A DNA stretch of 24,937 nucleotides from a virus (IMGVR_UViG_3300035547_000480:1-24937), one strand, 5' to 3'; counted from the stretch's first letter, positions 7,905 through 24,937 are shown. Notes: generated by a model from the sequence alone, not told the origin. Numbers and translations are program-made.

Positions 7905-8321
7905 ATGAAAGAAATATGGAATATTGTTCAAATGGTTTTTGCAGCTGTTGGCGGATGGTTGGGTTACTTTTTAGGGGGTTACGATGGGTTTTTATATGCG
8001 TTGATTGCCTTTGTGGTGGTTGATTATCTATTAGGCGTCATGTGCGCAGTGATTGAGAAACACCTATCCAGTGATATTGGCGCTCAAGGTATCTTTAAGA
8101 AAGTCGTTATTTTTTCTTTGGTAGGCGTGGCCCATATTATCGATCAAAACATTATCGGGGATGGCAGTGCTATTAGAACGGCGGTGATTTTCTTCTACTT
8201 ATCAAATGAAGGGATTAGTATTATTGAAAATGCCACAAGATTAGGATTGCCGGTGCCAGATAAATTGAAGGACATCCTAGAGCAGTTAAAGGATGGAGGC
8301 GATAAGGATGGCACTAAGTAA
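7905..8321 (+). CDS. Phage holin (toxin secretion/phage lysis holin family)
   Basis: Hydrophobic; GGWLGYFLGG..D, LSSDIG..GIFKK, FFYLSNEGISIIENA..LGLPVP family motifs. Confidence 0.92.
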   Translation: MKEIWNIVQMVFAAVGGWLGYFLGGYDGFLYALIAFVVVDYLLGVMCAVIEKHLSSDIGAQGIFKKVVIFSLVGVAHIIDQNIIGDGSAIRTAVIFFYLSNEGISIIENATRLGLPVPDKLKDILEQLKDGGDKDGTK

Positions 8322-9291
8322 CTTAAAAACAAAGTACATGACCAGAAATGATTGTTATACAGCTGGCAGAAAGATTAAACCTAAAGGAATTATGGTTCAT
8401 TCTACTGCCACACCGGGAGTGATGGCTGCTGATTGGCTTAGCCGGTGGAACAAATCCTACAAAGCAGGAGAGATTAAAAGACAGGTCTGCGTCCATGCAT
8501 TTCTGGATGACAAGGAAATCTGGCAGTACCTGCCCTGGAATCACAAGGGTTGGCATGCCGGAGGAGATGCGAATAATACCCACGTCGGTTTTGAGATATG
8601 CGAGCCGGGTGGGTTTTCTTATTCAGGTGGCACTACCATGGTGGGCTATGATGTGAAGAAAAATGAAGCCTACTTTAGAGCAGCTTGGCAGAATGCAGTG
8701 AACCTTTGTGTCCATCTCTGCAGAGAGTATGGTCTGACTGAGAAAGACATCATCAGCCATGCGGAAGGGAATAAGAAGGGAATCGCATCAAACCATTCAG
8801 ATGTGGGTCACTGGTTCCCAAAGCATGGAGAGAATATGGATACCTTTAGAGCTGCAGTAAAGAAGGCACTGGAGAATGTAGGCGAAGCCAAAGAGGTCTT
8901 TGAAGCTGGCAATATTGTAGAAATCAAAGCGTCTGCTAGAACCTATTATCCAGGCGGTCCAATCATTCCAAATTGGGTGAAATGGAACTATCATCTAATC
9001 ACCCAGGATGTGTTTAATGGTAAACCTGTGATCAAAGGCGGCAAGGAATGTGTTCTTCTTGGTAAAACCATCCTCAAAAGCACTATGGGTGAGAAGGCTG
9101 GCATTATGACTTGGGTTGATAAAGACAATCTTGAAATGGTCAGTGCTGGTGTGGAGGTTGAACCTGAGAAGGAATACAGTAAAAAATACTACCGTGTGCA
9201 GGCAGGTGCCTTCAGCGACAAGAAGAATGCAGAGGCCCTTATGGCCCGTCTTAAGAAGGCTGGATTTGATGCTTACATGAAGTATGATTAG
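8308..9291 (+). CDS. Endolysin: N-acetylmuramoyl-L-alanine amidase (Amidase_2-like) with C-terminal SPOR domain
   Basis: IMVHSTA, WHAG..N, GFEICE, ISHAE motifs; C-terminal YRVQAGAFSDKKNAEALMARLKKAGFDAY; GGAGG RBS favours ATG 8308. Confidence 0.9.
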   Translation: MALSNLKTKYMTRNDCYTAGRKIKPKGIMVHSTATPGVMAADWLSRWNKSYKAGEIKRQVCVHAFLDDKEIWQYLPWNHKGWHAGGDANNTHVGFEICEPGGFSYSGGTTMVGYDVKKNEAYFRAAWQNAVNLCVHLCREYGLTEKDIISHAEGNKKGIASNHSDVGHWFPKHGENMDTFRAAVKKALENVGEAKEVFEAGNIVEIKASARTYYPGGPIIPNWVKWNYHLITQDVFNGKPVIKGGKECVLLGKTILKSTMGEKAGIMTWVDKDNLEMVSAGVEVEPEKEYSKKYYRVQAGAFSDKKNAEALMARLKKAGFDAYMKYD

Positions 9292-9310: not shown

Positions 9311-9345
9311 GGCCGGTGTTATTTTTATAGCATCGGCTTATTTTT
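9311..9345 (+). terminator. Intrinsic terminator after endolysin
   Basis: GGCCGGTGTTAT-tttt-ATAGCATCGGCT stem then TATTTTT. Confidence 0.65.
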
Positions 9346-9367
9346 ATCCCTATATATAGAAGAAATG

Positions 9368-9402: not shown

Positions 9403-9521
9403 ATACGCAACAAGGCTTGGGACCTTTGATTCGAGGGTTTTAAGCATTATTATTTTTGACCTTGGGGCTAAAGAAATTATGCCGCGTGATGCGAACCAAG
9501 GGATAAAAAGGAAAGGAGGAA

Positions 9522-11147
9522 ATGAGCATGAATTATGCAAGAGTTCAGGTTGAGCCTGTTCAGCAACCCAGCGTTTCTGTAATAAACAACGTCGATTTAA
9601 ACAGAAGCTTGGGCCAGGGAAAACCACATAAACCTAAAGTTGCATCATACTGCAGAGTGAGTTCTGAAGAAGAGTTACAGCTAGGATCCCTTGAAAACCA
9701 AATTATTCATTACACTAATTATATTAGATCGAAGACAGAATGGATTTATGCAGGGGTTTACTCTGATAAAGGAAAATCCGGAACGGATATGTCCAAGCGA
9801 ACTGGCTTTAATCGGATGATTAGAAAAGCAATGAATGGTGAAATTGACATTATTATCTGCAAGTCTATTTCTAGATTTGCAAGGAATGTAGTGGATACGA
9901 TGGATGTTGTAAGACAGCTTACTGAAAAGGGCGTCCAGGTCATCTTCGAAAAAGAGAGACTGAACACCAAAGACATAACCAGTTCACTACTAATAAAGAT
10001 TTTGGCCACATTTGCAGAAGAAGAGAGTCGAAGTACTTCAGAAAATATTGAATGGGCCTTAAGAAAAAGATTTGAAAGAGGTGAAGTTGTTGCTTCGCAA
10101 CTCTTTGGTTACAAGACAAAGAAAAACAAGAAGTGGGAGATTGTTGAAAAAGAAGCGGCCATAGTAAGAGAAGCCTATGCAATGTTTCTTTCTGGCGATA
10201 ATCTGACAGCCATAGCCCAGCATTTCATTCGTAGAGGATACAAGAAGCGCTCCGGAGAGATTGATTGGACATCTTCTAATATAAGCAGCTTTCTTACAAA
10301 CGAAAGATATTGTGGAGATGCTCTTAGCAGAAAAACATGTACTTTGGATTTTAGATCTCATAAGACAGTGGTTAACAGGGGACATAAGCCTCAGTATTAT
10401 GTTGAGGACCATCATGAAGGGATTGTGTCAAAAGAAGATTTTCAAAAGGTCCAAGAGATTATGAATGAGAACAAAACCACCCAATCAAATAAAGGAAGAT
10501 ACAAACGCTCCGCTATTACCAGCAGAATTGTCTGCGCCAGCTGTGGAAAGAACTATCATCGCTTCGGTCAGAAGGGGAAAATAACCAGATGGCGATGTTC
10601 GTCAAATGCAAAGAGCGGACTTTTATGCAAGGCTCAACCTATTGAGGAGACGAAGATAGAAGAGCTTCTCATAGAAGGTTTTGAAAAACGTTATGGCATG
10701 GATCAGAGAACAAATGATGGCTTGCTGATTAAACAGCTTATAAAAGAGTTATCAAGTGCAGAAACCGTAAGAGAAAGAGAGCAAAATCTGTTGAGGGTGG
10801 AGCTTGAAAAGTGCCTGATTGCTGAAAACAATGCTATCTTAAAAAATCTAGATGTAGAAGACATCAAGGCTAAAAGAAAAGAAGTCGAAGAAACAATCGC
10901 TGAAAAAACAAAGTTATGGGAGGCTTTTGACAAAGACCATGTCTTTAGAGAAGCATCCTTGAATAAGCTTAAAACCCTCAAGGGTTCAGATAAAGCCATT
11001 TATAAAATACTAGATATCTCTTTTATAAGAGCGTGGGTGATTCACATTACAGTGGAGTCACCTTTTTTATTTACCATTAAGTGGATTGATGGAGAAGAAA
11101 CCGTTGTCGGTCAATTTAGAGGAGGAATGTACTATGACTCAAAATAG
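9522..11147 (+). CDS. Large serine recombinase, type A
   Basis: YCRVSS catalytic motif, SISRFARN, recombinase domain (NERYCG...HEGIVS), CASC..C..C zinc ribbon; AAAGGAGG RBS. Confidence 0.93.
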   Translation: MSMNYARVQVEPVQQPSVSVINNVDLNRSLGQGKPHKPKVASYCRVSSEEELQLGSLENQIIHYTNYIRSKTEWIYAGVYSDKGKSGTDMSKRTGFNRMIRKAMNGEIDIIICKSISRFARNVVDTMDVVRQLTEKGVQVIFEKERLNTKDITSSLLIKILATFAEEESRSTSENIEWALRKRFERGEVVASQLFGYKTKKNKKWEIVEKEAAIVREAYAMFLSGDNLTAIAQHFIRRGYKKRSGEIDWTSSNISSFLTNERYCGDALSRKTCTLDFRSHKTVVNRGHKPQYYVEDHHEGIVSKEDFQKVQEIMNENKTTQSNKGRYKRSAITSRIVCASCGKNYHRFGQKGKITRWRCSSNAKSGLLCKAQPIEETKIEELLIEGFEKRYGMDQRTNDGLLIKQLIKELSSAETVREREQNLLRVELEKCLIAENNAILKNLDVEDIKAKRKEVEETIAEKTKLWEAFDKDHVFREASLNKLKTLKGSDKAIYKILDISFIRAWVIHITVESPFLFTIKWIDGEETVVGQFRGGMYYDSK

Positions 11148-12831
11148 AAACTCTTCAGCGATGAATCCTCGGGTTCGGGTAATACCTGCGAATATGAACA
11201 TGCAAAGAAGAGGGGAAGGAGAAGAAGAACCAAAGGTTAAAGTTGCAGCCTATGCAAGGGTGTCAACTCTTGAAGAAGAGCAACAGTCAAGTTATCAGCT
11301 TCAGGTTTCCTATTTTGAAGAATACATTGAAAGAAAACCGGACTGGGAACTTTATAAAGTGTATAGTGACGAGGGTGTAACAGGAACAAATACAAAGTAC
11401 CGAACCGGCTTTAACCAGATGATCAAGGATGCTAAAGAAGGGAAATTTGACTACATCATCACCAAATCCATCAGCCGATTTGCACGAAATACTTTAGACT
11501 GTCTGACTTATGTGAGGATGCTTAAAAACCTAGACAAACCTGTGGGAATTATATTCGATAAAGAGGGAATTAACACATTGGATTCCCAATCAGAAACGAT
11601 TCTGGTTGTCATCGCAAGCGTTATGGAGGAAGAAAGTAGAACCATAAGCGCCAATGTAAGCTGGGGTGTTCAGAAGAGATTTTCAAGAGGAATACCACAC
11701 ATACCGACAACCTATTTTCTCGGCTACGATGAGGATGAGGAAGGCAATCTAATCATCAATGAAGAAGAAGCCAAGATTGTAAGAAGAATATATCGAGAGT
11801 TTCTAAGCGGGAAAGGAACACCACTTATTGCCAAGGGGCTAACCAAGGATAAAGTAAAAACCGCTAGGGGAAACACCAAATGGACCAGCGATTCGGTTCT
11901 CAAGCTGATAAAAAATGAAAAATTCTGTGGTCATGCACTGTGCCAGAAGTCAGTTACTCTAGACCCTTTAACCCATAAGCGGGTGAGAAATAAAAATCAC
12001 AAACCGCAGTATTTTATTCGTAACAATCACCCGCCGATTATTTCAGAGGAAGATTGGAACGCGGCTCAGAAGGAGCTGGAACGTAGAAGCAGAATGCGTC
12101 ATGATCCAGATGGGAAGTACCGAAGATGTTATAGCAACACAGCTCCCTTTTCTAACATGCTATTTTGTGGGGAGTGTGGGGTTCCGGTGCACAGAAGACG
12201 CCTTACCTCAAAGAAAAATGGGCAATCTTATAAATTCACGGTATGGCAGTGCAGGGTATCAGCGATGAAAATGGAAGCGGATTATAAATGCCATACAAAG
12301 TATATATGGGAAGAAGTCATTGAAAGAGCTTACAATGAGATGCTTCTGAAAATGACAAAAGAAATGGATCAGATTCGAATGGAAGGTGAAGCGGCCATAA
12401 AAGAGGTCAGCCTATCTGAAGAAGAAAATGTACGATTAGAAGAAGTGGAAGAAATCATTGACAGAATCAGCGATCAAATTACTGAAATGTCTATGAGAGA
12501 GAGTATCACCAATGACCCAATTTATGACGCCACCCTTAGAAATCTCATTTACGAGTCTCAAATTTACCAACAAGAACATGAAAACCTCCTGAAGAATAAA
12601 GAAGAAAGTATCTTCATGAAGAAGAACCTGGATATTCTTATTGAGTATCTACAGGGGCTGCAAGACTTCGAAACCTTCGATGCAAAAATGTTTAGAGAGA
12701 CTGTTGAACGGGGTCTTATCTATGATGATTACCAAATGGAGTTTATCTTTAAATGTGGGGTCAAGCGAAAGGCCCTCGGCTGGAGGAGAGGAAAGGACCC
12801 GGTGGAACCGCTGAACTTAGATACTCTTTAA
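11134..12831 (+). CDS. Large serine recombinase, type B
   Basis: YARVST, SISRFARN, NEKFCG...HPPIIS, CGEC..C..C zinc ribbon, coiled-coil; GGAGG RBS supports ATG 11134 overlapping the upstream gene end. Confidence 0.93.
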   Translation: MTQNRNSSAMNPRVRVIPANMNMQRRGEGEEEPKVKVAAYARVSTLEEEQQSSYQLQVSYFEEYIERKPDWELYKVYSDEGVTGTNTKYRTGFNQMIKDAKEGKFDYIITKSISRFARNTLDCLTYVRMLKNLDKPVGIIFDKEGINTLDSQSETILVVIASVMEEESRTISANVSWGVQKRFSRGIPHIPTTYFLGYDEDEEGNLIINEEEAKIVRRIYREFLSGKGTPLIAKGLTKDKVKTARGNTKWTSDSVLKLIKNEKFCGHALCQKSVTLDPLTHKRVRNKNHKPQYFIRNNHPPIISEEDWNAAQKELERRSRMRHDPDGKYRRCYSNTAPFSNMLFCGECGVPVHRRRLTSKKNGQSYKFTVWQCRVSAMKMEADYKCHTKYIWEEVIERAYNEMLLKMTKEMDQIRMEGEAAIKEVSLSEEENVRLEEVEEIIDRISDQITEMSMRESITNDPIYDATLRNLIYESQIYQQEHENLLKNKEESIFMKKNLDILIEYLQGLQDFETFDAKMFRETVERGLIYDDYQMEFIFKCGVKRKALGWRRGKDPVEPLNLDTL

Positions 12832-12878: not shown

Positions 12879-12976
12879 AAAATACTCCTTTGACCATTAG
12901 AGATTGTACTTGCAATATGTTTCATACAGAGGGAACATACCAACAAGCGTAATCTTTATGAGGAAAGGAGTTTTTT
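12879..12976 (+). promoter_or_regulatory. Long imperfect hairpin pairing over the RBS of the double recombinase gene (copy 1)
   Basis: ACTCCTTT pairs with AAAGGAGT; inner arms AGATTGTACTTG/CAAGCGTAATCT and TATGTTTC/GGAACATA; homologous structure at 21308-21406. Confidence 0.65.
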
Positions 12977-12978
12977 AA

Positions 12979-15900
12979 ATGGACCAAAGAGATAAGGCCA
13001 TGTGGGTACACACACTGTGGGATCCGCTGGACGAGATGCATCAAAGTCCACTGAACAGCAAAAAAGAAGGTATTCGGGTTGCAGCTTACTGCAGAATTAG
13101 TAAAGGCAACACCAATTACAGATCCCTTGAAAATCAAGTGAGCTATTACAGCAACTATATCTACAATAAGCCAAATTGGAAATTTGTCGGAGTGTATATC
13201 GATAATCAAATATCCGGTGGAACCATCGAACACCGAAATGGATTCAAGCGAATGCTTCGTCATGCTAGGGAAGGAAAGATCGATTTAATTCTTACGAAGA
13301 GCATATCCAGATTTTCAAGAAACACAAAGGAAATCTTAGAAGTGCTTCAACAGTTAAAAGAAAGTGGCACAACTGTATTTTTTGAACGTGAAGGCGTGGA
13401 GGTTTCTAAGGGTTTGAGTTCACTGGTCTTAGAGACTCATGCAGCCATGGCCCAAGATTTCATCGAAGGGGTTTCAAACCTTGTGAAGTTTTCTTATCAG
13501 AAACGCCTGAATGAAGGACGGCCTTATTTTCATGAGATGTACGGCTATGATTTAGTTGAGCCAGGTGGCAAAGACATGGTGAAGATTAATGAAGAGGAAG
13601 CAGAAGTAGTTAGGTGGATTTTTAATCAGTTTATTGGTGGCGCCACTTATGCTGATATCACTAGAGAACTTATACATCGAGGAATTAAAACAAAAAAGGG
13701 AAATGATCGGTGGGCCCATACACAAATTAGAAAAATCATTAATGCGATAGCCTATACAGGAAACAAAAGGGCAAAGGCACAAACCAAGGACCTTTTTACA
13801 GGAAAGATTACTGGCAGCGGTCCTTACAAAGATCAATACATGATTGAAAATAGTCATCCGGCGATAATATCCATGGATGTATTTAATAGAGCTCAGGCGA
13901 GGGTTAAGAAAAACAAAAGAACTAAGAAGCAAATTAGAACGCCAATAAGTAACCCGCTGAAATATAGAGTATTTTGTGGTCGATGCGGAAAATTGGTGCG
14001 AAGAAAAAATGACTATAGATATGGATGTGCCTACACCAATGCCAGCGTGAAGCTTTGTGATTTAGAACTTATAAAAACTTATGACCTTGTTGCTATGGGG
14101 TTAAGAGGCTTATTCGAACGCATGCTGGGGTTAACCATTATTGCAACTAAAAACAGAAAAGACATCACATATGAAATGGTAGATCCCCTTGGCAGAAGTG
14201 AGAAGACTTTAAAAGAAGATTTTCGTCTGATGCTTAGGGATCTTGAGAGAATCCTCATCAGGGTCAACCAGAATGACCATTTTGAATTCCAGCGCCTAAA
14301 GTATTTTACTGACATCGAAATTGCCAAAAGGCAGAATCAGATAGAGCTGATTGAACAGCTAGAAGATGAATATTCCTCTTTTGAAGAAAAGGTTGGACGT
14401 ATTGAAGATGATAGAGAGTATCGAAATGATGCTCTTGTTTGGTTAAGGACCATCAGAGGCATAGACCATTTTATTAATTCTGCAACCATTGAAATGGTTA
14501 GAGCGTGGATGACAAAACTGATAATCTATTCAGGGTCAGCTTATGTTATCGAGTGGATTGATGAAAAAACAACGACGATTGGGCAAAAAGAAATTCCTGG
14601 TATCGTAGAAGCTGCAGAAAACAAACGATTAGAAAGGGAGAGCCGACTAAAGAAACAAGAGAAACCTTTATTAAATGATCTTATTAACTTTGAAGCTGCA
14701 GAAGATTCTTTAAAAGATAATGAAAATTCTAAAGCCCGGAGAAAGGAGGAACTCTTAGTGGAAGCAACAGCGATTACAGCAGACTCAAAGAGTCTGGCAA
14801 AAATAAACAACCAGAATATACCTATGCGCGACGTGGTTGTCCTTGAGCGTGGCCTAAGCATTAAAGACCTAGGCGATTTAAAGAAGAATATTCTTAAGAA
14901 CAGGATGAGTCAGCTCAAGCAGGAAGAAAAGAAGAAACTGAGAGTTGCAGCGTACTGCAGAGTATCAACAGAGATGGATGAGCAAAAGCTCTCCCTGCAA
15001 ACCCAGCTTGCATATTATAACTACAAAATACTTTCGAATCCTTTATGGGAGCTTGCCGGAATCTATGCAGATGAAGGGGTATCAGGAACTATAACCGAGC
15101 ATAGGGATGATTTTAATCGGATGATTGAAGACGCGAAAAAAGGTAAGATCGATATGATCATTACAAAATCCATCTCTCGATTCAGTAGGAATGTGGTTGA
15201 TGTTTTGGGAACATTAAAGACCCTCCATGAGTTAGAACCGCCTTGTGTCTGCTACTTTGAAAAAGAAAACTTGAAGAGCAATGATCCAAACTCTTCATTA
15301 ATTTTATCGCTAATGGCTACCGTCGCAGAAGAAGAGATTGTTTCCTTATCCAACAGCATCACCTGGGGCGTACAAAGTCTTGCTCAAAGAGGAACCATCA
15401 GTAGAAGGACAGATATGTATGGATACACCATTGATAAGAACAGGGAGTGGCACATTGTTGAGGAAGAGGCAGAAGCGGTTCGATTGATGTATCAATTATT
15501 CATAGAAGGTAAAAATATTTTTGAGATTGTTGAACATCTAAATGAGCTGGGGATAAAGAGTCCAAAGGGCAGTGACTATTGGAATTACAATACTATCCGA
15601 GAAATATTGAGAAATGAAAAGTATCTCGGTGATTATGAATTTCAAAAATACTACACGAAGGTTGCCGGGAGCGTACGAAAAGCCAATTATGGCCAGGTTC
15701 CTAAGTATTATATTGAGGAACATCATCAGGCCATCATTGATCGAGAGACATTTGAAAACGCACAAAAGGTTTTCGAAGATAGGAAAAGGAACCCTGTAAA
15801 GAATGAGAGGAAAGACGGGACAGCAGGTAGAGAAATATATTATAAGAAGTTCACTTGTGCTGAATGTGGCCATGTAGTAGCAAGATACAGAAGCACCACC

Positions 15901-16827
15901 TATTATTCCAGAGAAGGAAGTGCATGGCGATGTTTTAACTCTTTTCAAAAACTAGGATCGACATGTAATGTGTCCATATCATTTGACGAAAGGTATATGG
16001 ATTACTGCTTTGTAGATACACTAAGGAAAATCAAAACCAGCGAAGACTTTAGGCATCAGATAAAAGCGCATTTGAGAAAATTGGATTTAACGAAAAAAGA
16101 ACTGCAGCATAAAGAGCACCTTGAAAAGCAAATGGAAGCATTAAATCAAGAGCTTTATAAGGCGGTGGATACGGAGATCCAAAAGAACGGTAAAAATACA
16201 CAGCTGATTAACCAGATAACTGACGATATCATCCAATTGAGGGAGCAGCACTACAAGTACATTGAGCGATTAGAACAGTTAGAGGAGGATAAAGAGCGAT
16301 TGGAGAAACTTCTGAAATACTGCGAAAAGATGAAACCTTTCTCTTTAAAAACCTTTCACAATATGAGGCCACGAATCAAGCCGGGAGATAGTGTATATTC
16401 CAAGACCAACAGCGCAAGAGATGTTTCATACATGGACTTGGAAGGAGAAGACCACTTACCTGAAGAAGTTTTTATTGAGTATGTGTTGAGCGCAACCATT
16501 GATAAAGCAGGGGAAATCAAGTTTAAGTTTGCAGAGGGTGCAGAGTTTGGTTCGGGGTTAGACTATGAGAAGTACAAAGAGCGGTTTGAAAAACAAAAGA
16601 AGAAAATCCAAATGGAGGAGCTTTTAATCTCCGCTGAAGTACAAGAGGTGAAAGAGTTCTGTAAAGAATACAGAAAACCAAAGGAAATTCGAGAGCATTT
16701 GGGCATTAAGAGTGAAATTTCATATCGTAAAAGAATCCAGGAACCTCTTTATAAAGCGGGGAAGTTGATGACTAATGACGCAAAAGTAACTCAACTAAGA
16801 ATGTATAGATGGGCAGATGAGGAGTAG
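12979..16827 (+). CDS. Double (tandem-fused) large serine recombinase, 1282 aa, with C-terminal winged-helix-like domain
   Basis: Two full modules: YCRISK/SISRFSRN/CGRC and YCRVST/SISRFSRN/CAEC; C-terminal EFCKEYRKPKEIREHLG...EPLYKAGKL. Confidence 0.9.
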   Translation: MDQRDKAMWVHTLWDPLDEMHQSPLNSKKEGIRVAAYCRISKGNTNYRSLENQVSYYSNYIYNKPNWKFVGVYIDNQISGGTIEHRNGFKRMLRHAREGKIDLILTKSISRFSRNTKEILEVLQQLKESGTTVFFEREGVEVSKGLSSLVLETHAAMAQDFIEGVSNLVKFSYQKRLNEGRPYFHEMYGYDLVEPGGKDMVKINEEEAEVVRWIFNQFIGGATYADITRELIHRGIKTKKGNDRWAHTQIRKIINAIAYTGNKRAKAQTKDLFTGKITGSGPYKDQYMIENSHPAIISMDVFNRAQARVKKNKRTKKQIRTPISNPLKYRVFCGRCGKLVRRKNDYRYGCAYTNASVKLCDLELIKTYDLVAMGLRGLFERMLGLTIIATKNRKDITYEMVDPLGRSEKTLKEDFRLMLRDLERILIRVNQNDHFEFQRLKYFTDIEIAKRQNQIELIEQLEDEYSSFEEKVGRIEDDREYRNDALVWLRTIRGIDHFINSATIEMVRAWMTKLIIYSGSAYVIEWIDEKTTTIGQKEIPGIVEAAENKRLERESRLKKQEKPLLNDLINFEAAEDSLKDNENSKARRKEELLVEATAITADSKSLAKINNQNIPMRDVVVLERGLSIKDLGDLKKNILKNRMSQLKQEEKKKLRVAAYCRVSTEMDEQKLSLQTQLAYYNYKILSNPLWELAGIYADEGVSGTITEHRDDFNRMIEDAKKGKIDMIITKSISRFSRNVVDVLGTLKTLHELEPPCVCYFEKENLKSNDPNSSLILSLMATVAEEEIVSLSNSITWGVQSLAQRGTISRRTDMYGYTIDKNREWHIVEEEAEAVRLMYQLFIEGKNIFEIVEHLNELGIKSPKGSDYWNYNTIREILRNEKYLGDYEFQKYYTKVAGSVRKANYGQVPKYYIEEHHQAIIDRETFENAQKVFEDRKRNPVKNERKDGTAGREIYYKKFTCAECGHVVARYRSTTYYSREGSAWRCFNSFQKLGSTCNVSISFDERYMDYCFVDTLRKIKTSEDFRHQIKAHLRKLDLTKKELQHKEHLEKQMEALNQELYKAVDTEIQKNGKNTQLINQITDDIIQLREQHYKYIERLEQLEEDKERLEKLLKYCEKMKPFSLKTFHNMRPRIKPGDSVYSKTNSARDVSYMDLEGEDHLPEEVFIEYVLSATIDKAGEIKFKFAEGAEFGSGLDYEKYKERFEKQKKKIQMEELLISAEVQEVKEFCKEYRKPKEIREHLGIKSEISYRKRIQEPLYKAGKLMTNDAKVTQLRMYRWADEE

Positions 16828-16860
16828 GTGTGTAAAGAAAACTGATGTCTTTTTTTAGCT

Positions 16861-16902
16861 CCTAAGCTATCACCTAAGATGCCACCTAAGCCATCACCTA
16901 AG
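16861..16902. repeat. Four CCTAAG cores at exact 12-bp period
   Basis: CCTAAG at 16861, 16873, 16885, 16897 (CCTAAGctatca/CCTAAGatgcca/CCTAAGccatca/CCTAAG). Confidence 0.85.
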
Positions 16903-17007
16903 TTCTATTTTTTAATAATGTCACGTTAATCTCCATATATGAAGAAAAACATGCCAAAATTAAAACATCCATTTTCCACTTCACAAAACTGAATAAAGAA
17001 GATTATT

Positions 17008-17035
17008 CCCCAGTGACCCATAGGCCTGGGGTTTT
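17008..17035 (+). terminator. Possible plus-strand terminator
   Basis: CCCCAG-N12-CTGGGG followed by TTTT. Confidence 0.4.
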
Positions 17036-17046
17036 ATCAGCAATAG

Positions 17047-17095
17047 AAAAACCCACTGAGTTGGCAGATAACAATTATCTACCACTTGGTGGGTT
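17047..17095 (-). terminator. Terminator of the XRE-IrrE-PIN operon (possibly bidirectional)
   Basis: AACCCAC..TGGCAGATAA / TTATCTACCA..GTGGGTT long stem with A5 on the left (U-tract on minus strand), just past the stop at 17100. Confidence 0.65.
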
Positions 17096-17099
17096 ATTT

Positions 17100-17801
17100 T
17101 TATTTGAAATATGATTCATACAAACTGTCCATACTCGAGGAGAAATCTCCCCAGCCAGGGTTTGTACTTTTTTCCCGATCGGTCAGATAGTACTGGTATT
17201 TATAGAGCATTTTCATGGCTGTTTTATCAGCCAGATCATTTCTGTATAGATAGTAAATCAGCTCATACATCTTGATGGCTTGTACATTATCTAAGCCTGT
17301 AGACCACTCTTCTGATTTTTCAATGAGTTGAATGGCATTATTATCATTAGCTGCGAAGTAGAGGAGACCTTTGACAGCAATATAAGACAATGATTTCACT
17401 TCTCCACGATCATCCTTGTTATCAAGCATCGGATCGTATTTAGTGAGAGAAGCAATTTTTGATTCAATGGTATCTCTTAAAATTTTTTCAACTTCTGTTA
17501 GAGATGAATCCTTGTGAATAATGATCTCCGGTGGAATGCTATCCCTTTTCGCATCTACATAATTTTGGGGAGAGATTCCAATCAGTTCATCATATACTGC
17601 TTCGTGAATAGCCAGATTTGGAAAGACGCTAAAAATGGGGTCTAGCCAGATCTCTTTAAATTGTTCAAATCTGATGCCTTTCTTAGTGATTGGCCTTCTA
17701 TCTGGAGCAATAAGAAAATTCGCATCTAAAGTGATGATTTGTTCCGGATCTTCAATTATACTTATCAATGCTGGGTTTGGATGGGTTAGATTAATCTTCA
17801 T
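17100..17801 (-). CDS. Putative PIN-like domain protein (candidate toxin/nuclease)
   Basis: ITLDANFLI, AIHEAVYDEL, DDRGEVKSLSY, FAANDNNA acidic pattern resembles PIN-fold proteins; GGGGAGG RBS favours ATG at 17801 (233 aa), overlapping the peptidase stop. Confidence 0.6.
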   Translation of the reverse strand: MKINLTHPNPALISIIEDPEQIITLDANFLIAPDRRPITKKGIRFEQFKEIWLDPIFSVFPNLAIHEAVYDELIGISPQNYVDAKRDSIPPEIIIHKDSSLTEVEKILRDTIESKIASLTKYDPMLDNKDDRGEVKSLSYIAVKGLLYFAANDNNAIQLIEKSEEWSTGLDNVQAIKMYELIYYLYRNDLADKTAMKMLYKYQYYLTDREKSTNPGWGDFSSSMDSLYESYFK

Positions 17802-18678
17802 CATCATCCTCCCCACTGAAGAAAGCATCAAGCTCATCTATGTCTTCTTGAGAGACTTTTATCTCATAACCAAATTCATCAGGTGTTCTATTGAAAAGGC
17901 TTAGGGTTTCTGCAAATTTATCTTCATCTATGAGATTGTCTTCAAAGTTTCTAATGATGATCTCGATTTCATTAGGGGAAGTACCAATATTTTTAGTTGG
18001 CTGATTCAATTTAAGAAACTCGTCTTTATTAGTGGCCAGACCTGCTTTTCCGTATTCACCTTGAAGATCTCGTTCATCAATAGAGTATAATTCTGCATAC
18101 TGCTCTGATGAAATTGCACCTATCTCGTGCAGTCTTCTGACAAGTGAACGGTATGGGAGCCACCATGTGCAGTGGAGTCTAGCGATAAATCTCAACAGTG
18201 CTTTGTGTTGGATTTTCTCAAGAGAAGATGTCTTAAACTCATCAAGAACAATACTTTCCAGTACTGTTTCAGGTAACAAAAACTCTGCTGCAAAACGGTT
18301 AGCTTTTACTTCAATAAGGCTATTATCTTCATCTTCCGGTCTGCTCAGATGTGAGCCGGATTTCGTGTAATAGTGATATAGCTCATGAGCAATAGCAAAG
18401 ATTTGTTTATCGTAATAATCTGCAGTATTTAGCCCGATGAAAGTTAGTTTTTTATCGCCTTCTTCGGAATACATTATAGCAGCAGAAAAAGCTGGTCTAT
18501 CACCTTCAGATTCGATGGGATATTCCAGCAACATGATGTCTAGTCTATCAAGAATTGTAAAGATGTCATTTGCAATAGGTGTTTCGCCTACGAAGCCTAA
18601 AGAAAGGCGTTTTTCTCCGGCAAGTTTGCGAATTTCATCTACTTGTACTTCATTAAGCGTGATTGGATTCATTTTCAA
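17791..18678 (-). CDS. ImmA/IrrE family metallo-endopeptidase
   Basis: FAIAHELYH (HExxH) and EVKANRFAAEFLLP motifs; start TTG 18678 or ATG 18672. Confidence 0.9.
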   Translation of the reverse strand: MKMNPITLNEVQVDEIRKLAGEKRLSLGFVGETPIANDIFTILDRLDIMLLEYPIESEGDRPAFSAAIMYSEEGDKKLTFIGLNTADYYDKQIFAIAHELYHYYTKSGSHLSRPEDEDNSLIEVKANRFAAEFLLPETVLESIVLDEFKTSSLEKIQHKALLRFIARLHCTWWLPYRSLVRRLHEIGAISSEQYAELYSIDERDLQGEYGKAGLATNKDEFLKLNQPTKNIGTSPNEIEIIIRNFEDNLIDEDKFAETLSLFNRTPDEFGYEIKVSQEDIDELDAFFSGEDDDED

Positions 18679-19015
18679 ATGAGCTCCTTAATTTGATTTG
18701 CTGTCTTAGGGACAACATCATAGTGAATAGTTTTTCTACGCCTTCTTTTTCACTATCGCTTAATGCTTCACTTCGAAGAGCAACAAAAGAGTTCGTTCGT
18801 TCTTTCTCCACAAACATTTCTGTAAGATCAAAACCTAAAACATTTGATAAAGCTTCAAACTGTACAATAGATGGAGTGAAGTCTTCTCTTTCAATGCGGC
18901 CTATCATAATTCTGTTTATACCGGTTAAATTACCGAGTTCTTCTTTTGTAAATCCTTTTGATTCTCTAAGGTTTCTAACTGTTTCAGCTAATTTTTTAGT
19001 TGATAAAGTTTTCAT
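18653..19015 (-). CDS. XRE-family helix-turn-helix transcriptional regulator
   Basis: VRNLRESKGFTKEELGNLTGINRIMIGRIEREDFTPS HTH_3 pattern; GAAAGGAGG RBS. Confidence 0.9.
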   Translation of the reverse strand: MKTLSTKKLAETVRNLRESKGFTKEELGNLTGINRIMIGRIEREDFTPSIVQFEALSNVLGFDLTEMFVEKERTNSFVALRSEALSDSEKEGVEKLFTMMLSLRQQIKLRSSFENESNHA

Positions 19016-19033
19016 GGTTTGGGCCTCCTTTCA

Positions 19034-19090
19034 ATACTATAGTATGCCCGTATCTAATTATATGATACTATAAATAACAAAATGCGTCAA
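19034..19090 (-). promoter_or_regulatory. SigA-type promoter of the XRE operon with overlapping palindromic operators
   Basis: Minus strand TTGACG (19090-19085)-N17-TATCAT (19067-19062); palindromes GTATC-N9-GATAC (19050-19068) and ATACTATAGTAT (19034-19045). Confidence 0.7.
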
Positions 19091-19595
19091 TCTTTATTAA
19101 TATTGTACCCAATATGAAATAAATAATAACATAGGTTGTAAAAAAACTCAATCATGAAATATACAGTTTCATAAAACAATTATGCTTGATGGAGCAGCAT
19201 AGGCAAAGATCGCAATAAAGTTTCTAGCCTCGGAAATGTACCGAACTTAGATAAAGTATTGGCTAGATTTCAGCTTTTTCAGAGTGAAATGGCTAAATCG
19301 CGTTTGTGGCCAATTTGAGCCGGATTAGTCGATTGTGGAGCAATGGGTCAAAAATTAAATGAAAAGCCGACACAGGCCAAACTGAAGCGTCGTTTTTTGA
19401 GAGGTTGCTCTAAAATTTTCAGTTTTGGGCAGATTAAGCTTTTAAGTTCAAATAAAGGATCTTGTTTTGTCTACATATATAATAGGAAGAAACTCGTTCA
19501 GGTGAGAGATGCATTGTCATGATGAAATGAGATAGCTTTTTACATTATATGAAGAAAGTGCTTTCTCGGTGTATTAAGCGGGGAAGGCTGCAAAT

Positions 19596-19626
19596 AAAAA
19601 AGCTCCATCCACTTTTGGATAGAGCT
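19596..19626 (-). terminator. Intrinsic terminator of the candidate sRNA
   Basis: Plus strand AAAAAAGCTCCATCCA-cttt-TGGATAGAGCT = stem plus U6 on the minus strand. Confidence 0.7.
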
Positions 19627-19682
19627 ACGAACTTCTTTATATATTTAGAATCAATTGCTTACGTATGCCGTAATTCGAACTA
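19596..19682 (-). ncRNA. Candidate ~87-nt small RNA
   Basis: Lies between a perfect TTGACA-N17-TATAAT promoter and an intrinsic terminator (AGCTC-T-ATCCA-aaag-TGGAT-G-GAGC-U6); no ORF or RBS inside. Confidence 0.6.
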
Positions 19683-19692
19683 GTTCGAATTA
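19671..19692. promoter_or_regulatory. Perfect 22-bp palindrome TAATTCGAACTAGTTCGAATTA (candidate operator)
   Basis: Identical to its own reverse complement; overlaps the -10 and predicted start site of the minus-strand promoter. Confidence 0.7.
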
Positions 19693-19717
19693 TATAGGAG
19701 TTATCGTTCAATGTCAA
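19689..19717 (-). promoter_or_regulatory. Perfect consensus SigA promoter
   Basis: Minus strand TTGACA (19717-19712), 17-nt spacer, TATAAT (19694-19689). Confidence 0.8.
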
Positions 19718-19935
19718 GTATCAGAATATTCTGAAAACAAGGTAGTTGGTGCAAAGTTTTATCAAAAAGATTGATTTTTTTAAGCCTGGATTTTGTAATT
19801 GTTCCTGATTATCTCATTGATTTTAGATTGCATAACGAGACATTGTATATTGGTCTCAGATTATTTTAGATGAAGAAAGGTCTGCTCGGGTAATTTTAAA
19901 ACGCTCTGAGAGCGTATGTATGGATCAAAATTCTT

Positions 19936-19962
19936 GCTCATCATGTCGTGATGGGCTTTTTT
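19936..19962 (+). terminator. Plus-strand intrinsic terminator with no upstream CDS
   Basis: GCTCATCA-tgtcg-TGATGGGC then T6. Confidence 0.65.
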
Positions 19963-20067
19963 GCTGTTAAAAACATGAATATTACCGAGAAATGAGGCTA
20001 AAACCAACTTTTTTCTTGACATTTTTCTATGTATTGGATTTCCTTTTTATCCTTCGAGAATCAAGGC

Positions 20068-21264
20068 GTAATTTCCAGCATTGCTGAAGAAGAGTCCCGC
20101 ACAATAAGTGCTAATGTCAGCTGGGGGGTTCAGAAAAGATTCTCGCAAGGACAGCCTCATATTCCTACCACATACTTTTTAGGATATGACGAGGATGAAG
20201 AGGGGAATCTCATCATCAATGAAGATGAAGCTAAAACGGTGAGAAGGATCTTTCGAGAGTTTATCTCAGGAAAAGGGTCGGTCCAGATAGCTAACGGGTT
20301 GACGAAAGATAAAGTGAAAACAGCAAGGGATAATACAAAATGGACCAGTGATTCTGTTTTAAAAATACTTCGCAACGAAAAATTCTGCGGCCATGCATTA
20401 TGTCAGAAATCAGTGACCCTGGACCCTCTAACCCACAAACGGGTCAGAAATAAAAATCATAAGCCGCAGTACTTTATACGGAACAACCACCCCGCAATCA
20501 TCTCTGAAGAAGACTGGAATTATGTACAAAAGGAACTGGATAGAAGACGAAAAATGAAGCATGATCCTGACGGCAAATACCATAGAACCTATAGCGGAAA
20601 AGCACCATTTTCAAATATGCTTTACTGTGGAGAGTGTGGCATGCCGGTTCATAGAAGGCGCATAACATCAAAGCGAGATGGGAAGCCCTACAAGTTTACC
20701 GTTTGGCACTGCAGACTGGCGGCGCAAAAAGTAGAAGCTGACTTTGACTGCCATTCAAAGTATGTTTGGGAAGAGGTTATTGAAACAGCCTACAATGAAA
20801 TGCTTCTGAAAATGACTGAAGAAATTGATCTCATAAGAGCTGAGGGGGAAGCGGCCATTGAGGATGTGAGCTTAACATACGACGAAAAAGAAAGGCTCAA
20901 AGAACTTGAAGAAATCATCGATCGAATCAATGATCGCATAAGTGAAATGGCCATGAGGGAAAGTGTCACGAATGATCCCATCTATGATGCAACCCTTAGA
21001 AATATGATCTATGAATCACAAATCTACCAGCAGGAGCATGAAGCGCTTGTCAAAAGCCAGGACGAAGAAATCTACATGAGGCAGAACCTAGAAGCCCTGA
21101 TAACATATCTTGAAAGCCAAAGTAGCTTTGAAACCTTTGATGCAGCAGAATTTAAAAAGCTTGTCGAAAGAGGTATTCTCCACAAAGACTATGAGATTGA
21201 GTTTATCTTTAAATGCGGAGTCATAAGAACGGCTCAAGGCTGGAGACGTGGGAAGAACGAGTAG
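20068..21264 (+). pseudogene. 5'-truncated paralog of type B serine recombinase (catalytic domain missing)
   Basis: From VISSIAEEESRTISANVSWGVQKRFS onward it aligns closely with 11134-12831; no YxRVS or SRFARN motif; upstream ATG 20029 has no RBS and a non-homologous first ~13 codons. Confidence 0.8.
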
Positions 21265-21307: not shown

Positions 21308-21406
21308 AAAATACTCCTTTACCTTATGGAGATTGTACTTGCAATAGTTTGACACCAATGCAAACATACAAGCAAGCGCAATATTTCAGAGGAAAGGAGT
21401 TTTTTT
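21308..21406 (+). promoter_or_regulatory. RBS-sequestering hairpin upstream of double recombinase (copy 2)
   Basis: ACTCCTTT/AAAGGAGT, ATTGTACTTGC/GCAAGCGCAAT, GTTTG/CAAAC; homologous to 12879-12976. Confidence 0.65.
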
Positions 21407-21407
21407 A

Positions 21408-24400
21408 ATGGACCAAATAGATAAAAGTTTATGGATCAATAAATTATGGGATCCTTTAGAAAAGATAGAGGACAGTCCACTTCACAGTAAGCGAGAGGGA
21501 ATCAAGGTAGCTGCCTATTGTAGAGTGAGTCTTGATTCACTGGGGCTGTCCCACTCATTGGAAAGCCAGGTAAGCCACTACACCCATGTGATTAATAGTA
21601 GGGATAATTGGACCTTTGTAGGTATTTATTTCGACAATCTGGTTACCGGGAGAAAAGCATCATTAAGACGAGGCTTCACTCGGATGCTCAGACACTGTGA
21701 AGAGCACAGAATTGACCTAATCTTAGTCAAAAATGTATCCCGGTTTTCAAGAAACACGAAAGAGCTTATTGAAGTCATTGAACGATTAAAAGAAATAAAC
21801 GTAGCGGTATATTTTGAAGCGGAAAATATTACGAGCACTAGGAGTGAAACAGCCTATCTTCTAAAAACCTATGCCAGCATTGCTCAAGGGGAAATTGAGG
21901 CAACTTCCCAGGCGATAGAGTGGGGACATGAAAAACGAATGATGAAAGGCAAGGTTAATATCGGACACACATACGGCTATGATAAAACAAAAGTTGGTAA
22001 TGAGACCGTCATTACAATCAATGAAGAGCAAGCACAAGTTGTTAGACAGATTTATCAAATGCATCTTGATGGTATGAGTAATAATGCCATTGCAGGTGAA
22101 TTAACCATTAGAGGAGTCAGGACCTACTTTGGGAAGGAACTGTGGGGACCGAAGACGATAGCATCAATCTTATCAAACATTGCCTATACAGGAAACGCAA
22201 AGACCAGGAAACTTACAAGAGATTTGATGAGCAACAAAAGACGGTCATCAGAAGGGATACGGGATCAATATTTAATTGAGAACCACCATCCAGCGATTAT
22301 AAGTCAGGAAGTCTTTGACCGGGTACAAGAAGAGAGAAACAAGAACAAAAGGGAATCTAAACCTCAACAAATTAGACCCAATCCGTTATCAAGGCGGATT
22401 CACTGTGGCAACTGCGGTCAGAATTTTAGAAGAAATAGAATTAAACCATGGGAGTATTTCAGGTGCGTCTCGGCAATAACAAACAAAAACCTCTGCAGCT
22501 CACCGACTATACGGGAAGACCTCATGGTTGAAATAATGCTAAAAGCTTTTACAGTACGCTTTGATACTCAAGATCCAAAATTGATTAAAATGCTACAAAG
22601 AATGTTGATTAGGATAAACCAGAATGACTACTTTGAGTTCCATCGCCTAAAAGCCTTGACTCAGATGCAATTGGCTAAAAGGTTGAGAGATATTCAATTT
22701 ACAGATGAGGACATTAATCAGCTGGAAAAGGATTATGAGAAATTTGAGAACCGGCTTGTAGAAATAGAAGATGATAGGGATTATCGGCTCGGTTCCATAA
22801 AATGGCTTGAGAATGTTAAAACATTTGAAGAATTTGAAGGGAAAGCCACTATTGAATACTTACGGGCTTGGATTCTTTCTTTGGACATTTATTCAAAAGA
22901 TGATTATAAAATTTACTGGATCGATGGGAAAGAAACAGAGGTTGGAAGCTGCAAACCCATAAAACCAAACATAGAAGAGTCGTTATCAGAGTTGCATCCA
23001 AATGGGGATTTAGTGGTTCAAAAAGACACTAATTTTGAATTGATGACAAACATCCAAATCGCCTCGGAGAAAGGGGGTGATCAAAATTACGTTGATGAGG
23101 AGGACGGAAAGATGTTAGCAGAAAGAAGACTTGAACCGAATTTGATGGTTAAAAATATACAAAAACAATTGAGCAACTCTGTGATAATGCGGACGAGTGT
23201 ACCGGTAGTGAGAGATAAGAAATTAAAAGTGGCTGCATATGTCCGTGTTTCTACAGAACTGGAGCAGCAAAAAACAAGTATTAAGACCCAATACTCATAT
23301 TATCTGTACCTTATCCTCAAGGACCCACGCTACATTTTAGCCGATATCTATATAGATGATGGCAAAAGCGGAAGAACGACTGAAGGAAGGCCCGAGTTCA
23401 AACGCATGATGGAAGATTGCAAAACAGGTAGAGTGGACCTGATCATTACAAAATCGCTATCTCGATTTGCCAGAAATACTGTCGATACATTAACCTACTT
23501 AAACATGTTGAAAAGTCTGGATCCGCCAGTTGACGTTTGGTTCGAGCGCGAGAACTTAAGGGCGCTTGATGAAAAGAGCAATGTCCTGATCAATCTGTTA
23601 TCCGCACTGGGGCAGGAGGAAAGTGTCAACATCGGTGAATCCATTGCCTGGGGCAGAAGAAGCCTAGCCCAAAGAGGGGTTGTAAGACCGGCGGTTCAAG
23701 GCTACGGCTATCAATACGATAAAAATAAAGAGTGGATAATTAACGATGAAGAAGCTGAAGTTGTGCAGAGGATCTATGATGAGTATGAAAAAGGAAAGAC
23801 AATAAGGGCTATAAGAGATTTACTCATATCTGAATCAGTTCCAACTCCCGGAGGACAAGAAGCATGGTGCGACACCACCATTGGAAGGATATTGCGCTCT
23901 GAAATTTATCGGGGCAATTACATTTATCAGAGATTTCATTCGGGACTTACTCTGGCAAATGAACGGGTGAAGAATACAGGGGAGCTGCCCATGTATTTCA
24001 TTGAGAATCACCACAAAGCAATTATTGGAGAAGAGCAGTGGGAAAGGGTTCAAAAATTAACTGAAGCAAATGAAAAGAAACGTAAAAAGAGTCAAAAGAA
24101 ATATCCGGATGACCATGGTAAGAATGAATCTTTTACAAAGAAATTTTACTGCGGAAAATGTGGAAGTTTAGTCGGATATAGTAGAGCCATCAACAGACAG
24201 AAGAAAAATTATGAGGTGAGGTGGTGGTGCTGCTATCAATCATCGAGAGGGCACTGTGATTCCATGTACATGAAGCAGGAGTACGTTGAAGAAAACTTCT
24301 CTCAGCTTATGATGGACATAAAATTCAACCCTGCATTTAATGAGTACCTTGATGCCTTTATTGAAGACTTGCGAATAAAGCCAGAGGAAGAAAAGCAAAG

Positions 24401-24937
24401 AGCGATCTTAGAAAAGCAAAAAGACGATTTAAACCAGAAGCTTTATGAAGCGGTTGAAGATGAACTAGGCAGAAAAGGAAAAGATGCAAAACTGGTTGAT
24501 CATTTGACAGAAGAGATCATGAAGATAAGAGAGCAAATGGTTGATTTCATGGCCCGAGAAGAACAGCAGGCTGAGATAGAAGAGGATATCAACACCCTCA
24601 GAAAAGCGCTGGCCATTTATACCGATGAAAGAAGAGACGACCTTGGTTATTACTTAAATGCACCAGAGTTTCAACCTGAACTATTTGGCCGCTTTATTGA
24701 GAAAGGAACTATTCATGAAGACGGTCAGATTATCTATCGGTTCCATTCCGGTTTTGAGTGGAGAGCGTCAATAAACTACAGAGTCTTTCAAGAACAGGAG
24801 AAACGTAGAAAAAAAGCAAAATACCAATTAGAAAAGAAAGAGTTTTTAAAAGGGCCTGAGGTGAAGGCTTTACTAAAATATTGTGAAGAGCCAAGAAAGT
24901 TGACTGAGATGATTGATTTCTTGGGAAAATATTCTTC
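21408..24937 (+). CDS. Second double large serine recombinase (partial, runs off window; absent from ORF track for lack of a stop)
   Basis: MDQIDKSLWINKLWDPLE...KVAAYCRVSL...NVSRFSRN; second module KLKVAAYVRVST (~23220) ...SLSRFARN; ends PEVKALLKYCEEPRKLTEMIDFLGKYS; the same frame holds at start, linker and end. Confidence 0.9.
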   Translation, partial: MDQIDKSLWINKLWDPLEKIEDSPLHSKREGIKVAAYCRVSLDSLGLSHSLESQVSHYTHVINSRDNWTFVGIYFDNLVTGRKASLRRGFTRMLRHCEEHRIDLILVKNVSRFSRNTKELIEVIERLKEINVAVYFEAENITSTRSETAYLLKTYASIAQGEIEATSQAIEWGHEKRMMKGKVNIGHTYGYDKTKVGNETVITINEEQAQVVRQIYQMHLDGMSNNAIAGELTIRGVRTYFGKELWGPKTIASILSNIAYTGNAKTRKLTRDLMSNKRRSSEGIRDQYLIENHHPAIISQEVFDRVQEERNKNKRESKPQQIRPNPLSRRIHCGNCGQNFRRNRIKPWEYFRCVSAITNKNLCSSPTIREDLMVEIMLKAFTVRFDTQDPKLIKMLQRMLIRINQNDYFEFHRLKALTQMQLAKRLRDIQFTDEDINQLEKDYEKFENRLVEIEDDRDYRLGSIKWLENVKTFEEFEGKATIEYLRAWILSLDIYSKDDYKIYWIDGKETEVGSCKPIKPNIEESLSELHPNGDLVVQKDTNFELMTNIQIASEKGGDQNYVDEEDGKMLAERRLEPNLMVKNIQKQLSNSVIMRTSVPVVRDKKLKVAAYVRVSTELEQQKTSIKTQYSYYLYLILKDPRYILADIYIDDGKSGRTTEGRPEFKRMMEDCKTGRVDLIITKSLSRFARNTVDTLTYLNMLKSLDPPVDVWFERENLRALDEKSNVLINLLSALGQEESVNIGESIAWGRRSLAQRGVVRPAVQGYGYQYDKNKEWIINDEEAEVVQRIYDEYEKGKTIRAIRDLLISESVPTPGGQEAWCDTTIGRILRSEIYRGNYIYQRFHSGLTLANERVKNTGELPMYFIENHHKAIIGEEQWERVQKLTEANEKKRKKSQKKYPDDHGKNESFTKKFYCGKCGSLVGYSRAINRQKKNYEVRWWCCYQSSRGHCDSMYMKQEYVEENFSQLMMDIKFNPAFNEYLDAFIEDLRIKPEEEKQRAILEKQKDDLNQKLYEAVEDELGRKGKDAKLVDHLTEEIMKIREQMVDFMAREEQQAEIEEDINTLRKALAIYTDERRDDLGYYLNAPEFQPELFGRFIEKGTIHEDGQIIYRFHSGFEWRASINYRVFQEQEKRRKKAKYQLEKKEFLKGPEVKALLKYCEEPRKLTEMIDFLGKYS

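Follow-up and report, generated by a model that had tools for sequence, protein, structure and literature searches.

A gene that joins two large serine recombinases in one reading frame raises the question of whether its product acts only as a fusion or whether the second recombinase is also made separately, and of what such a choice would mean for the element that carries it. A gene of this kind occurs twice in the window analysed here, i.e., the whole stretch of 24,937 nucleotides, a virus record that covers the right-hand portion of a tailed prophage, in which tail genes, a holin and an amidase are present. The features are collected in Table 1.

Table 1. Features of the window, with the basis of each assignment or a remark.
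Feature	Position	Strand	Basis or remark
Holin and amidase endolysin	7905..9291	+	Pfam Phage_holin_4_1, Amidase_2, SPOR; late phage genes end here, recombinase module downstream
Large serine recombinase A, stand-alone	9528..11147	+	Pfam; ATG 9528 has the strongest SD
Large serine recombinase B, stand-alone	11134..12831	+	Pfam; 14-nt overlap with the end of A
Anti-SD arm, copy 1	12881..12891	+	Predicted pairing with the fusion SD (12964-12970) on read-through mRNA
Two-block promoter-like motif, CTTG...16 nt...GAG[GT]GA	12909..12939	+	Between anti-SD and SD; putative function
Fused double recombinase A'-B', copy 1 (1282 aa)	12979..16827	+	ORF; two Resolvase + Recombinase sets (Pfam)
Internal SD and in-frame GTG, copy 1	SD 14740-14749, GTG 14758-14760	+	Putative start codon of a free B' (689 aa)
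Cargo: HTH regulator, IrrE/M78-like protein, third gene	17100..19015	-	PADLOC PDC-M69B (3.5e-37), PDC-M69C (1.4e-10); Pfam
Conserved right end, copy 1 element (att-like arm)	19997..20068	+	Joined to the B-type gene of another element; same arm at different sequences in related loci
5'-truncated B-type recombinase gene, second element	20069..21264	+	Recombinase + zinc ribbon only, catalytic domain missing
Leader, copy 2	21310..21399	+	Anti-SD 21310-21320, promoter-like motif 21338-21369, SD 21393-21399
Fused double recombinase A'-B', copy 2	21408..24937	+	Pfam; runs past the window end; 37% identity to copy 1
Predicted hairpin burying a second, start-less SD	23058-23081	+	30 nt upstream of the copy 2 internal ATG
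Internal SD and in-frame ATG, copy 2	SD 23097-23103, ATG 23112-23114	+	Predicted start of a free B'

The recombinase module has the gene order A, B, A'-B' and comprises four units in three genes, which fall into four separate lineages and all carry catalytic motifs. PF00239 (Resolvase catalytic domain) is found in both halves of both fusion copies and PF07508 (Recombinase domain) in all halves; PF13408 (zinc ribbon) is matched in the copy 2 halves only, and four cysteines per half, the zinc-ribbon cysteines, are invariant in the alignment of the fusion family. Of the Y-x-R-x-S nucleophile motif, S663 and R661 are invariant and S41 and R39 are retained in at least 90% of the 66 alignment rows, and the KSISR.SR residues of B' are invariant across the alignment. 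Helical coiled-coil regions are present in the AlphaFold2 model of copy 2, and the best Foldseek matches are the serine integrase complexes 9dxd, 9y66, 9tep and 9iu2. Judged by domains and active-site motifs, each fusion half is a complete large serine recombinase. At the end of B', residues of about 1215-1282 in copy 1 form an extra small helical domain; PF21247 is annotated for this C-terminal domain in some homologs, and fusions of about 1110 aa appear without it.

In a quick tree of 63 catalytic regions, the units form one group each according to their position in the module, with SH-aLRT values of 99 for A, 99 for B, 97 for the C-halves and a weak 77 for the N-halves. Together with the identities within the window (28% between A and the N-half of the fusion, 34% over 424 columns between B and the C-half), this grouping shows that the module combines an old A-B pair with a fused pair of paralogs. 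Among the best 120 of 219 homologs, coverage of the protein reaches at least 85% in 75, one of which is the query itself; the rest of these 75 are 31-58% identical to it. The second catalytic motif is present in 78 of the 79 homologs longer than 1050 aa and the first, by a strict pattern, in 71, the eight misses being five Y-x-R-T-S variants, one IYCRVS and two proteins that begin downstream of the motif. The genome and metagenome scans with generic motifs covered 4/64 and 2/64 parts, so that the family counts are lower bounds; no further fusion came out of the viral scans made with P0077 and P0026. PV036459 (labelled Ca. Heliusvirales) is the only phage record found to span the whole fusion protein, at 54% identity and with the same three-gene order. 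Oil-field, aquatic and bioreactor metagenomes contain near-identical DNA, contigs of one metatranscriptome (X22) cover pieces only, and a 57-kb relative has 74 features, most of those viewed being labelled 'hypothetical'.

The case for a separately made B' begins with the linker between the two halves. Copy 1 carries the SD AGAAAGGAGG, an 8-nt spacer and GTG at codon 594 of its ORF; copy 2 carries GAGGAGG, again with an 8-nt spacer, and ATG at codon 569. SD strength is expressed as the pairing energy (kcal/mol) to a Bacillota-type anti-SD probe, which we take to correspond to the Bacillota 16S end. At -16.4 kcal/mol, the SD of GTG 14758 is the strongest among the 60 in-frame ATG/GTG/TTG codons of copy 1, the gene's own start reaching -12.9; ATG 23112, with -11.9 kcal/mol, has the best internal SD among 57 in-frame codons and is second only to copy 2's own start. 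Both signals, pointed out in the first-pass annotation, are therefore real, in frame and the best internal SD of their gene. The AlphaFold2 model of copy 2 (mean pLDDT 78.5) consists of two folded halves, with residues 523-602 below pLDDT 50, which places Met569 within a disordered linker.

The same annotation had matched a further stretch of copy 2, CGGAGAAAGGGGGTG (23065-23079), to the copy 1 site. The sequence is present, but it is not the equivalent of that site: it lies in another frame, no in-frame start follows 5-12 nt downstream, and it falls inside a hairpin, so the likeness does not reflect functional correspondence. This hairpin is predicted in 4/5 clade members, with z = -1.9 for the 91-nt region, and it could shield the copy 2 internal start from elongating ribosomes. 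The start-less SD within it is very strong (-20.4 kcal/mol).

Taken singly, the two sites differ in weight. When the linkers are recoded synonymously, the observed SD strength is matched with P = 0.02 for the copy 1 cluster and with P = 0.14 for that of copy 2; since the latter is not significant by itself, the case rests on the family. The linker set comprises 47 linkers that are complete and differ from one another, grouped into 16 clusters at 45% identity; L019, which runs off its locus, and L011, which has a one-base frameshift downstream of the start, are omitted. L011 has the look of a split gene (611 + 643 aa), but its break is a one-base-shorter A run at that place, read as an error or lesion and not as a natural split. 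Three matches to a split A' alone all continue through the linker.

Lack of a conserved SD and start in homologous linkers had been named beforehand as a result that would refute the internal start, and the comparison gives the opposite. An in-frame ATG, GTG or TTG with an SD of -10 kcal/mol or stronger is kept in 44/47 linkers. The linkers (like the leaders below) are mutually related, so that this count overstates independence, and their loci had been retrieved through a similarity search with the alignment of the fusion. Tiles of equal length from other parts of these ORFs reach the threshold in 16/448 cases, and the other frames of the linkers in 12/47 (frame +1) and 0/47 (frame +2). At -9 kcal/mol, the signal is found in 46/47 linkers and 15/16 clusters, the sole miss being L087. 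When SDs are located first in 16 representatives, an in-frame start lies 5-12 nt further on for 15/19 linker SDs vs 5/75 others (Fisher P = 5e-10). Synonymous recoding matches the observed strength with P ≤ 0.04 in 10/15 clusters and with P = 0.10-0.26 in the remaining 5/15, that of copy 2 among them. A protein-level motif occurs in 44/67 sequences vs 12.6 expected, a figure that is supporting only, the pattern having been written after the data were seen and missing longer spacers.

The form of the signal is variable. The start codon is GTG in 19, TTG in 15 and ATG in 13 of the linkers; the spacers of the 16 representatives are 7, 8, 9 and 11 nt long, so the SD occupies different codon phases; and the start lies 28-80 codons after the W.D motif. 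Linker identity between clusters is below 45%, while the halves are about 31-58% identical. Except in L087, the start precedes the catalytic motif by at least 41 codons, and a free B' would consequently keep a conserved N-terminal extension. Both other frames contain stops in 16/16 linkers and the fusion frame is open in 47/48 evaluable loci; read-through into B' therefore looks maintained, for loci that were fetched with a fused query. In three members of one cluster (L018, L081, L244), the linker SD of greatest strength stands before a CTG, a codon that reads TTG in L080, a close relative; a second, weaker SD-GTG lies 17 codons downstream. In L280 and L281, repeats downstream of the internal GTG expand the linker to 163-169 aa, and the N-half is frameshifted.

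P0146 (MGI6490861.1) is a B' annotated as a protein of its own, beginning at the homologous codon; it has 672 aa, comes from 28 contigs, the longest of 821 kb, and nests beside copy 1 in the quick tree; DNA of the stand-alone B' (P0125/P0146) was not found in the viral contigs, nor in 112 and 151 genomes of two classes. Collectively, the fused gene bears the hallmark of a conserved SD and in-frame start at a domain boundary, as far as sequence comparison can tell, and the internal start is very probably functional. The proposal that each gene yields both the fusion and a free C-terminal recombinase is strongly supported by this conservation, at the level of sequence rather than of protein.

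The fusion's own start is predicted to be under a different regime. Leaders were retained when their own SD was -8 or stronger and enough flank was available (L007 and L087 failed; the leader of copy 1 equals that of L004). In 40/40 distinct, mutually related leaders, this SD pairs with a stretch 70-95 nt upstream better than shuffles do (P ≤ 0.05 each), and the leader fold has z = -4.3 for copy 1 (0/200 shuffles) and -6.1 for copy 2. In the 21-row alignment A3, 92.9% of the cells of a 10-pair anti-SD:SD helix are paired in the 17 rows with letters, 6/10 pairs have changed on both sides, 0/500 shuffles reach this level, and slid registers give 48-77%. G-U pairs alternate with Watson-Crick pairs in this stem, and the pairing thus points to RNA. 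RNAalifold returns no consensus structure for A3, in which 4/21 rows have the anti-SD aligned elsewhere, and Rfam gives no match to the leader at E ≤ 1. A covarying anti-SD:SD structure on the fusion leader is, from these alignments, quite probable. The internal SD is not similarly paired, with P ≤ 0.05 in 5/39 cases and 51% and 81% unpaired in the two copies of the window. Before A, pairing reaches P ≤ 0.05 in only 3/13 leaders. The A leader is flanked by an inverted repeat, TTTTTATCCC / GGGATAAAAA (9338-9352 and 9499-9512), which resembles the end-arm motif TTTTTATCC and is possibly an autoregulation site.

The stem closes a loop of 60-90 nt, and its 3' arm is the SD itself. Between the two arms lies the promoter-like motif, in 16/16 leaders checked, with CTTG invariant in A3; a sigma-70 scan does not pick it up. 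On the long form, in which the anti-SD is present, the unpaired probability of the SD is at most 0.15 in 16/16 leaders. On all three short forms, which start after the motif, the SD is more unpaired in 14/16, and in two L080 leaders it remains paired on the short form. The helix and the position of the motif fit a fold-back leader of the fused gene, here a candidate assignment, with promoter activity as a prediction.

Taking these elements together, read-through mRNA from the A-B operon would hold the anti-SD and hide the fusion SD, giving A, B and free B', and mRNA from the promoter-like motif inside the stem would be without the anti-SD and give A'-B' (plus B'). With the fusion start closed by the upstream stem and the internal start ungated, promoter choice would set the recombinase mix; that this is the role of the anti-SD leader, deciding between fusion and free B', is the reading we lean towards.

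The rivals of this scheme divide by what they take the internal signal to be. Some deny that it serves as a start of B'. A relic of the ancestral A'/B' gene junction would account for the SD and start found at the corresponding position, past the W.D motif, in the unfused A-B pair, and a by-product of a K/E-rich linker protein for the fact that AAG GAG GAA reads K-E-E, common in such linkers, as well as for the non-significant value of copy 2 alone. However, the signal is kept in linkers less than 45% identical while start codon, spacer, SD reading frame and position change, which argues against both a relic and a protein motif, and synonymous recoding loses it in the 10/15 clusters given above; on these comparisons, the relic or by-product reading appears largely refuted and is very improbable. 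Slightly less credit still is given to the internal SD as a signal for ribosome pausing or frameshifting, with A' alone as the product. Frameshifting can be stimulated by internal SDs, and copy 2 does have its strong start-less SD within the hairpin, but an in-frame start is far commoner after linker SDs than after SDs elsewhere, and no X_XXY_YYZ site occurs at a shared position, 7/16 linkers having none. The same very low probability applies to a free B' made from a second promoter inside A', with the leader inverted repeat as a DNA operator: one sigma-70-like site matching 9/12 lies at 14309-14337, whereas such sites number 9 vs 11.0 expected by chance, and the alternation of G-U with Watson-Crick pairs in the stem is as expected of RNA, not of an operator.

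Other rivals accept the internal start and differ in the use of its product. Free B' might inhibit or compete with the fusion, damping recombination instead of redirecting it. The IS50 inhibitor is a precedent for an inhibitory short product, and free B' has every B' interface of the fusion; isoform heteromers are also a recognised outcome of internal starts in the portion of 10.1101/520783 consulted. Against this stand the full catalytic set that B' retains (the invariant S663, R661 and KSISR.SR, and the second motif in nearly all long homologs) and the annotated stand-alone B' lineage, which make an inhibitor improbable. The main rival is a fixed-ratio assembly, in which the internal start only supplies extra B' (e.g., one A'-B' plus two B' per tetramer) and the stem is a terminator or silencer, without any product switch. 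It accounts for all the internal-start evidence, and it agrees with CcrA being needed at one of four half-sites and CcrB always (sections of PMC10018568, citing Misiura 2013, and of PMC13739063) and with the 1:2 assembly of the long and short forms of SpaO (sections of PMC13515050). A run of about 5-7 U ends the stem in most leaders, so stem and U run could form a terminator; if they do, transcripts entering from the A-B operon would stop short of the internal start. On the other hand, the 3' arm is the SD, the promoter-like motif sits between the arms and the loop spans 60-90 nt, features that fit fold-back gating better than a compact terminator; a fixed ratio is accordingly held to be somewhat unlikely, well ahead of the inhibitor.

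Whether the mixes that promoter choice would produce also differ in activity bears on the first-pass suggestion that the product ratio controls directionality. Two recombinase mixes might build different hetero-tetramers on asymmetric attachment sites, as CcrA and CcrB do, and by analogy they would favour different reactions, e.g., integration vs excision, an extension that we put forward only tentatively. The directionality claim gains a plausible lever because only the fusion SD, and not the internal one, has a covarying anti-SD that is predicted to gate it; control by the product ratio is a plausible hypothesis. The suggestion had leaned on a missing RDF gene, and among ORFs of at least 30 aa at 16800-20100, judged by eye in a window that is without the left part of the prophage, no obvious candidate is seen; the argument is weak, because the window holds only the right part. 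The left end of the prophage and attP were searched for and not found. For the scheme as a whole, i.e., a selected internal start and an anti-SD gate, with promoter choice setting the recombinase mix and the mixes favouring different reactions, the chances appear evenly balanced. Its boldest form, an RDF-free directionality switch in RNA, where promoter choice would yield fusion or free half and the subunit mix of a four-component recombinase would decide between integration and excision at relaxed targets, is rather doubtful.

The ends of the elements give a picture of these targets. The right end, of about 70 bp up to 20068, is found at 11 distinct junctions, of which 7 are inside recombinase genes and 2 inside other coding regions; at the remaining 2, an imperfect inverted partner follows the end. 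It is joined to different targets in L001, L005, L006, L009, L012, L251, L252 and L266, and other clades (L080, L010, L287, L288, L291) show the same behaviour with ends of their own. Most targets are recombinase genes of sibling elements, which results in arrays of truncated B, A'-B' and cargo, with three fusions in L080; in L015, the two module types stand in reverse order. In intact relatives of the truncated B-type gene, B coding sequence extends upstream past the position of 20069. Copy 2 thus belongs to what is left of a second element, which was interrupted inside its B gene and keeps a leader of its own. A shared crossover core formed by the CG at the end of the arm was rejected, intact B relatives reading ACAA, not CG, before the junction, and a shared crossover dinucleotide is not evident across the right-end junctions. 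The right end followed by the imperfect inverted partner occurs in contigs of 3/4 sequencing runs. It is followed by a reverse-complement-like arm sequence, as an attP-like pair, at L003:12730 and L262:11030 and in runs X10, X13 and X21, and L269:19005-19350 holds three copies of the inverted partner within 350 bp.

The cargo of the copy 1 element is a candidate defence system, PDC-M69, by its sequence matches to components B and C; in G266, PDC-M69 cargo adjoins other cargo. Several prophages lie in or beside polysaccharide-synthesis loci (G001:C4, G266:C7, L285:21574-23001, L006:12670). PV036459 is followed after its end by what we take to be a truncated flippase-like gene and a sugar-dehydratase-like fragment, and the L006 target presumably resembles UDP-glucose dehydrogenase.

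Directionality is understood for single serine integrases with a small RDF; the division of labour in CcrAB and in ICE triplets is much less clear. The present family offers a direct test, in that three point-mutable signals (the internal SD and start, the leader anti-SD and the promoter-like motif) should set the subunit mix. New here is the upstream anti-SD, which pairs with the SD of the fusion start in all 40 distinct leaders and shows compensatory changes. As annotation shows only the 1,100-1,300-aa fusion, mining pipelines would miss a free B'. The fusion is also a natural tethered hetero-dimer, a model for integrases that read asymmetric sites.

Compared with large serine integrases such as those of SPbeta, phiC31 and Bxb1, each fusion half has the same catalytic and recombinase domains, zinc-ribbon cysteines and helical coiled coil. 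The canonical integrase is one enzyme acting as a homotetramer, whereas the module spreads four units, two of which are fused, over three genes, and the units fall into separate tree groups. In serine integrases, a small RDF that acts on the coiled coil determines directionality (10.1101/2025.01.03.631226). The CcrA/CcrB modules of SCCmec share with the module described here several non-identical recombinases, a relaxed choice of sites and cassettes in tandem that carry defence genes as cargo, as given in excerpts of PMC10018568, PMC13739063 and PMC11470126. In those same excerpts, CcrA and CcrB are two separate genes, with no fusion, internal start or gated leader described; here, in contrast, four units lie in a tailed prophage. 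The two-gene arrangement of an SCC at rlmH is likewise replaced by a fused gene in a tailed prophage with other junctions. In the integrase triplets of Streptococcus ICEs, tandem paralogs cluster by module position, as A, B, A' and B' do; the triplets are, however, three separate genes of conjugative elements with defined targets, unlike the four units, fusion and varied junctions found here (portions of PMC4701971).

In ArcB-C, SpaO, infB and clpB, as here, a domain boundary carries an SD with an in-frame start that is kept in different species and gives a C-terminal isoform (text portions of 10.1101/520783 and PMC13515050). The short product predicted for the fused gene differs in being an entire enzyme, the second of the fusion and a paralog of its first half. 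An integrase or transposase among bacterial internal starts gave 0 matches in the part of the review text searched, and neither a fused double serine integrase nor an internal start in one was found in the open-text literature searched. In the fold-back control of the IS10 and IS50 transposases and of T4 I-TevI, an upstream arm hides the RBS on read-through mRNA, and a promoter between the arms frees it. That gate is an on/off control for one protein, whereas in the fused recombinase gene, with its ungated internal start, a gate of this kind would decide which of two products is made.
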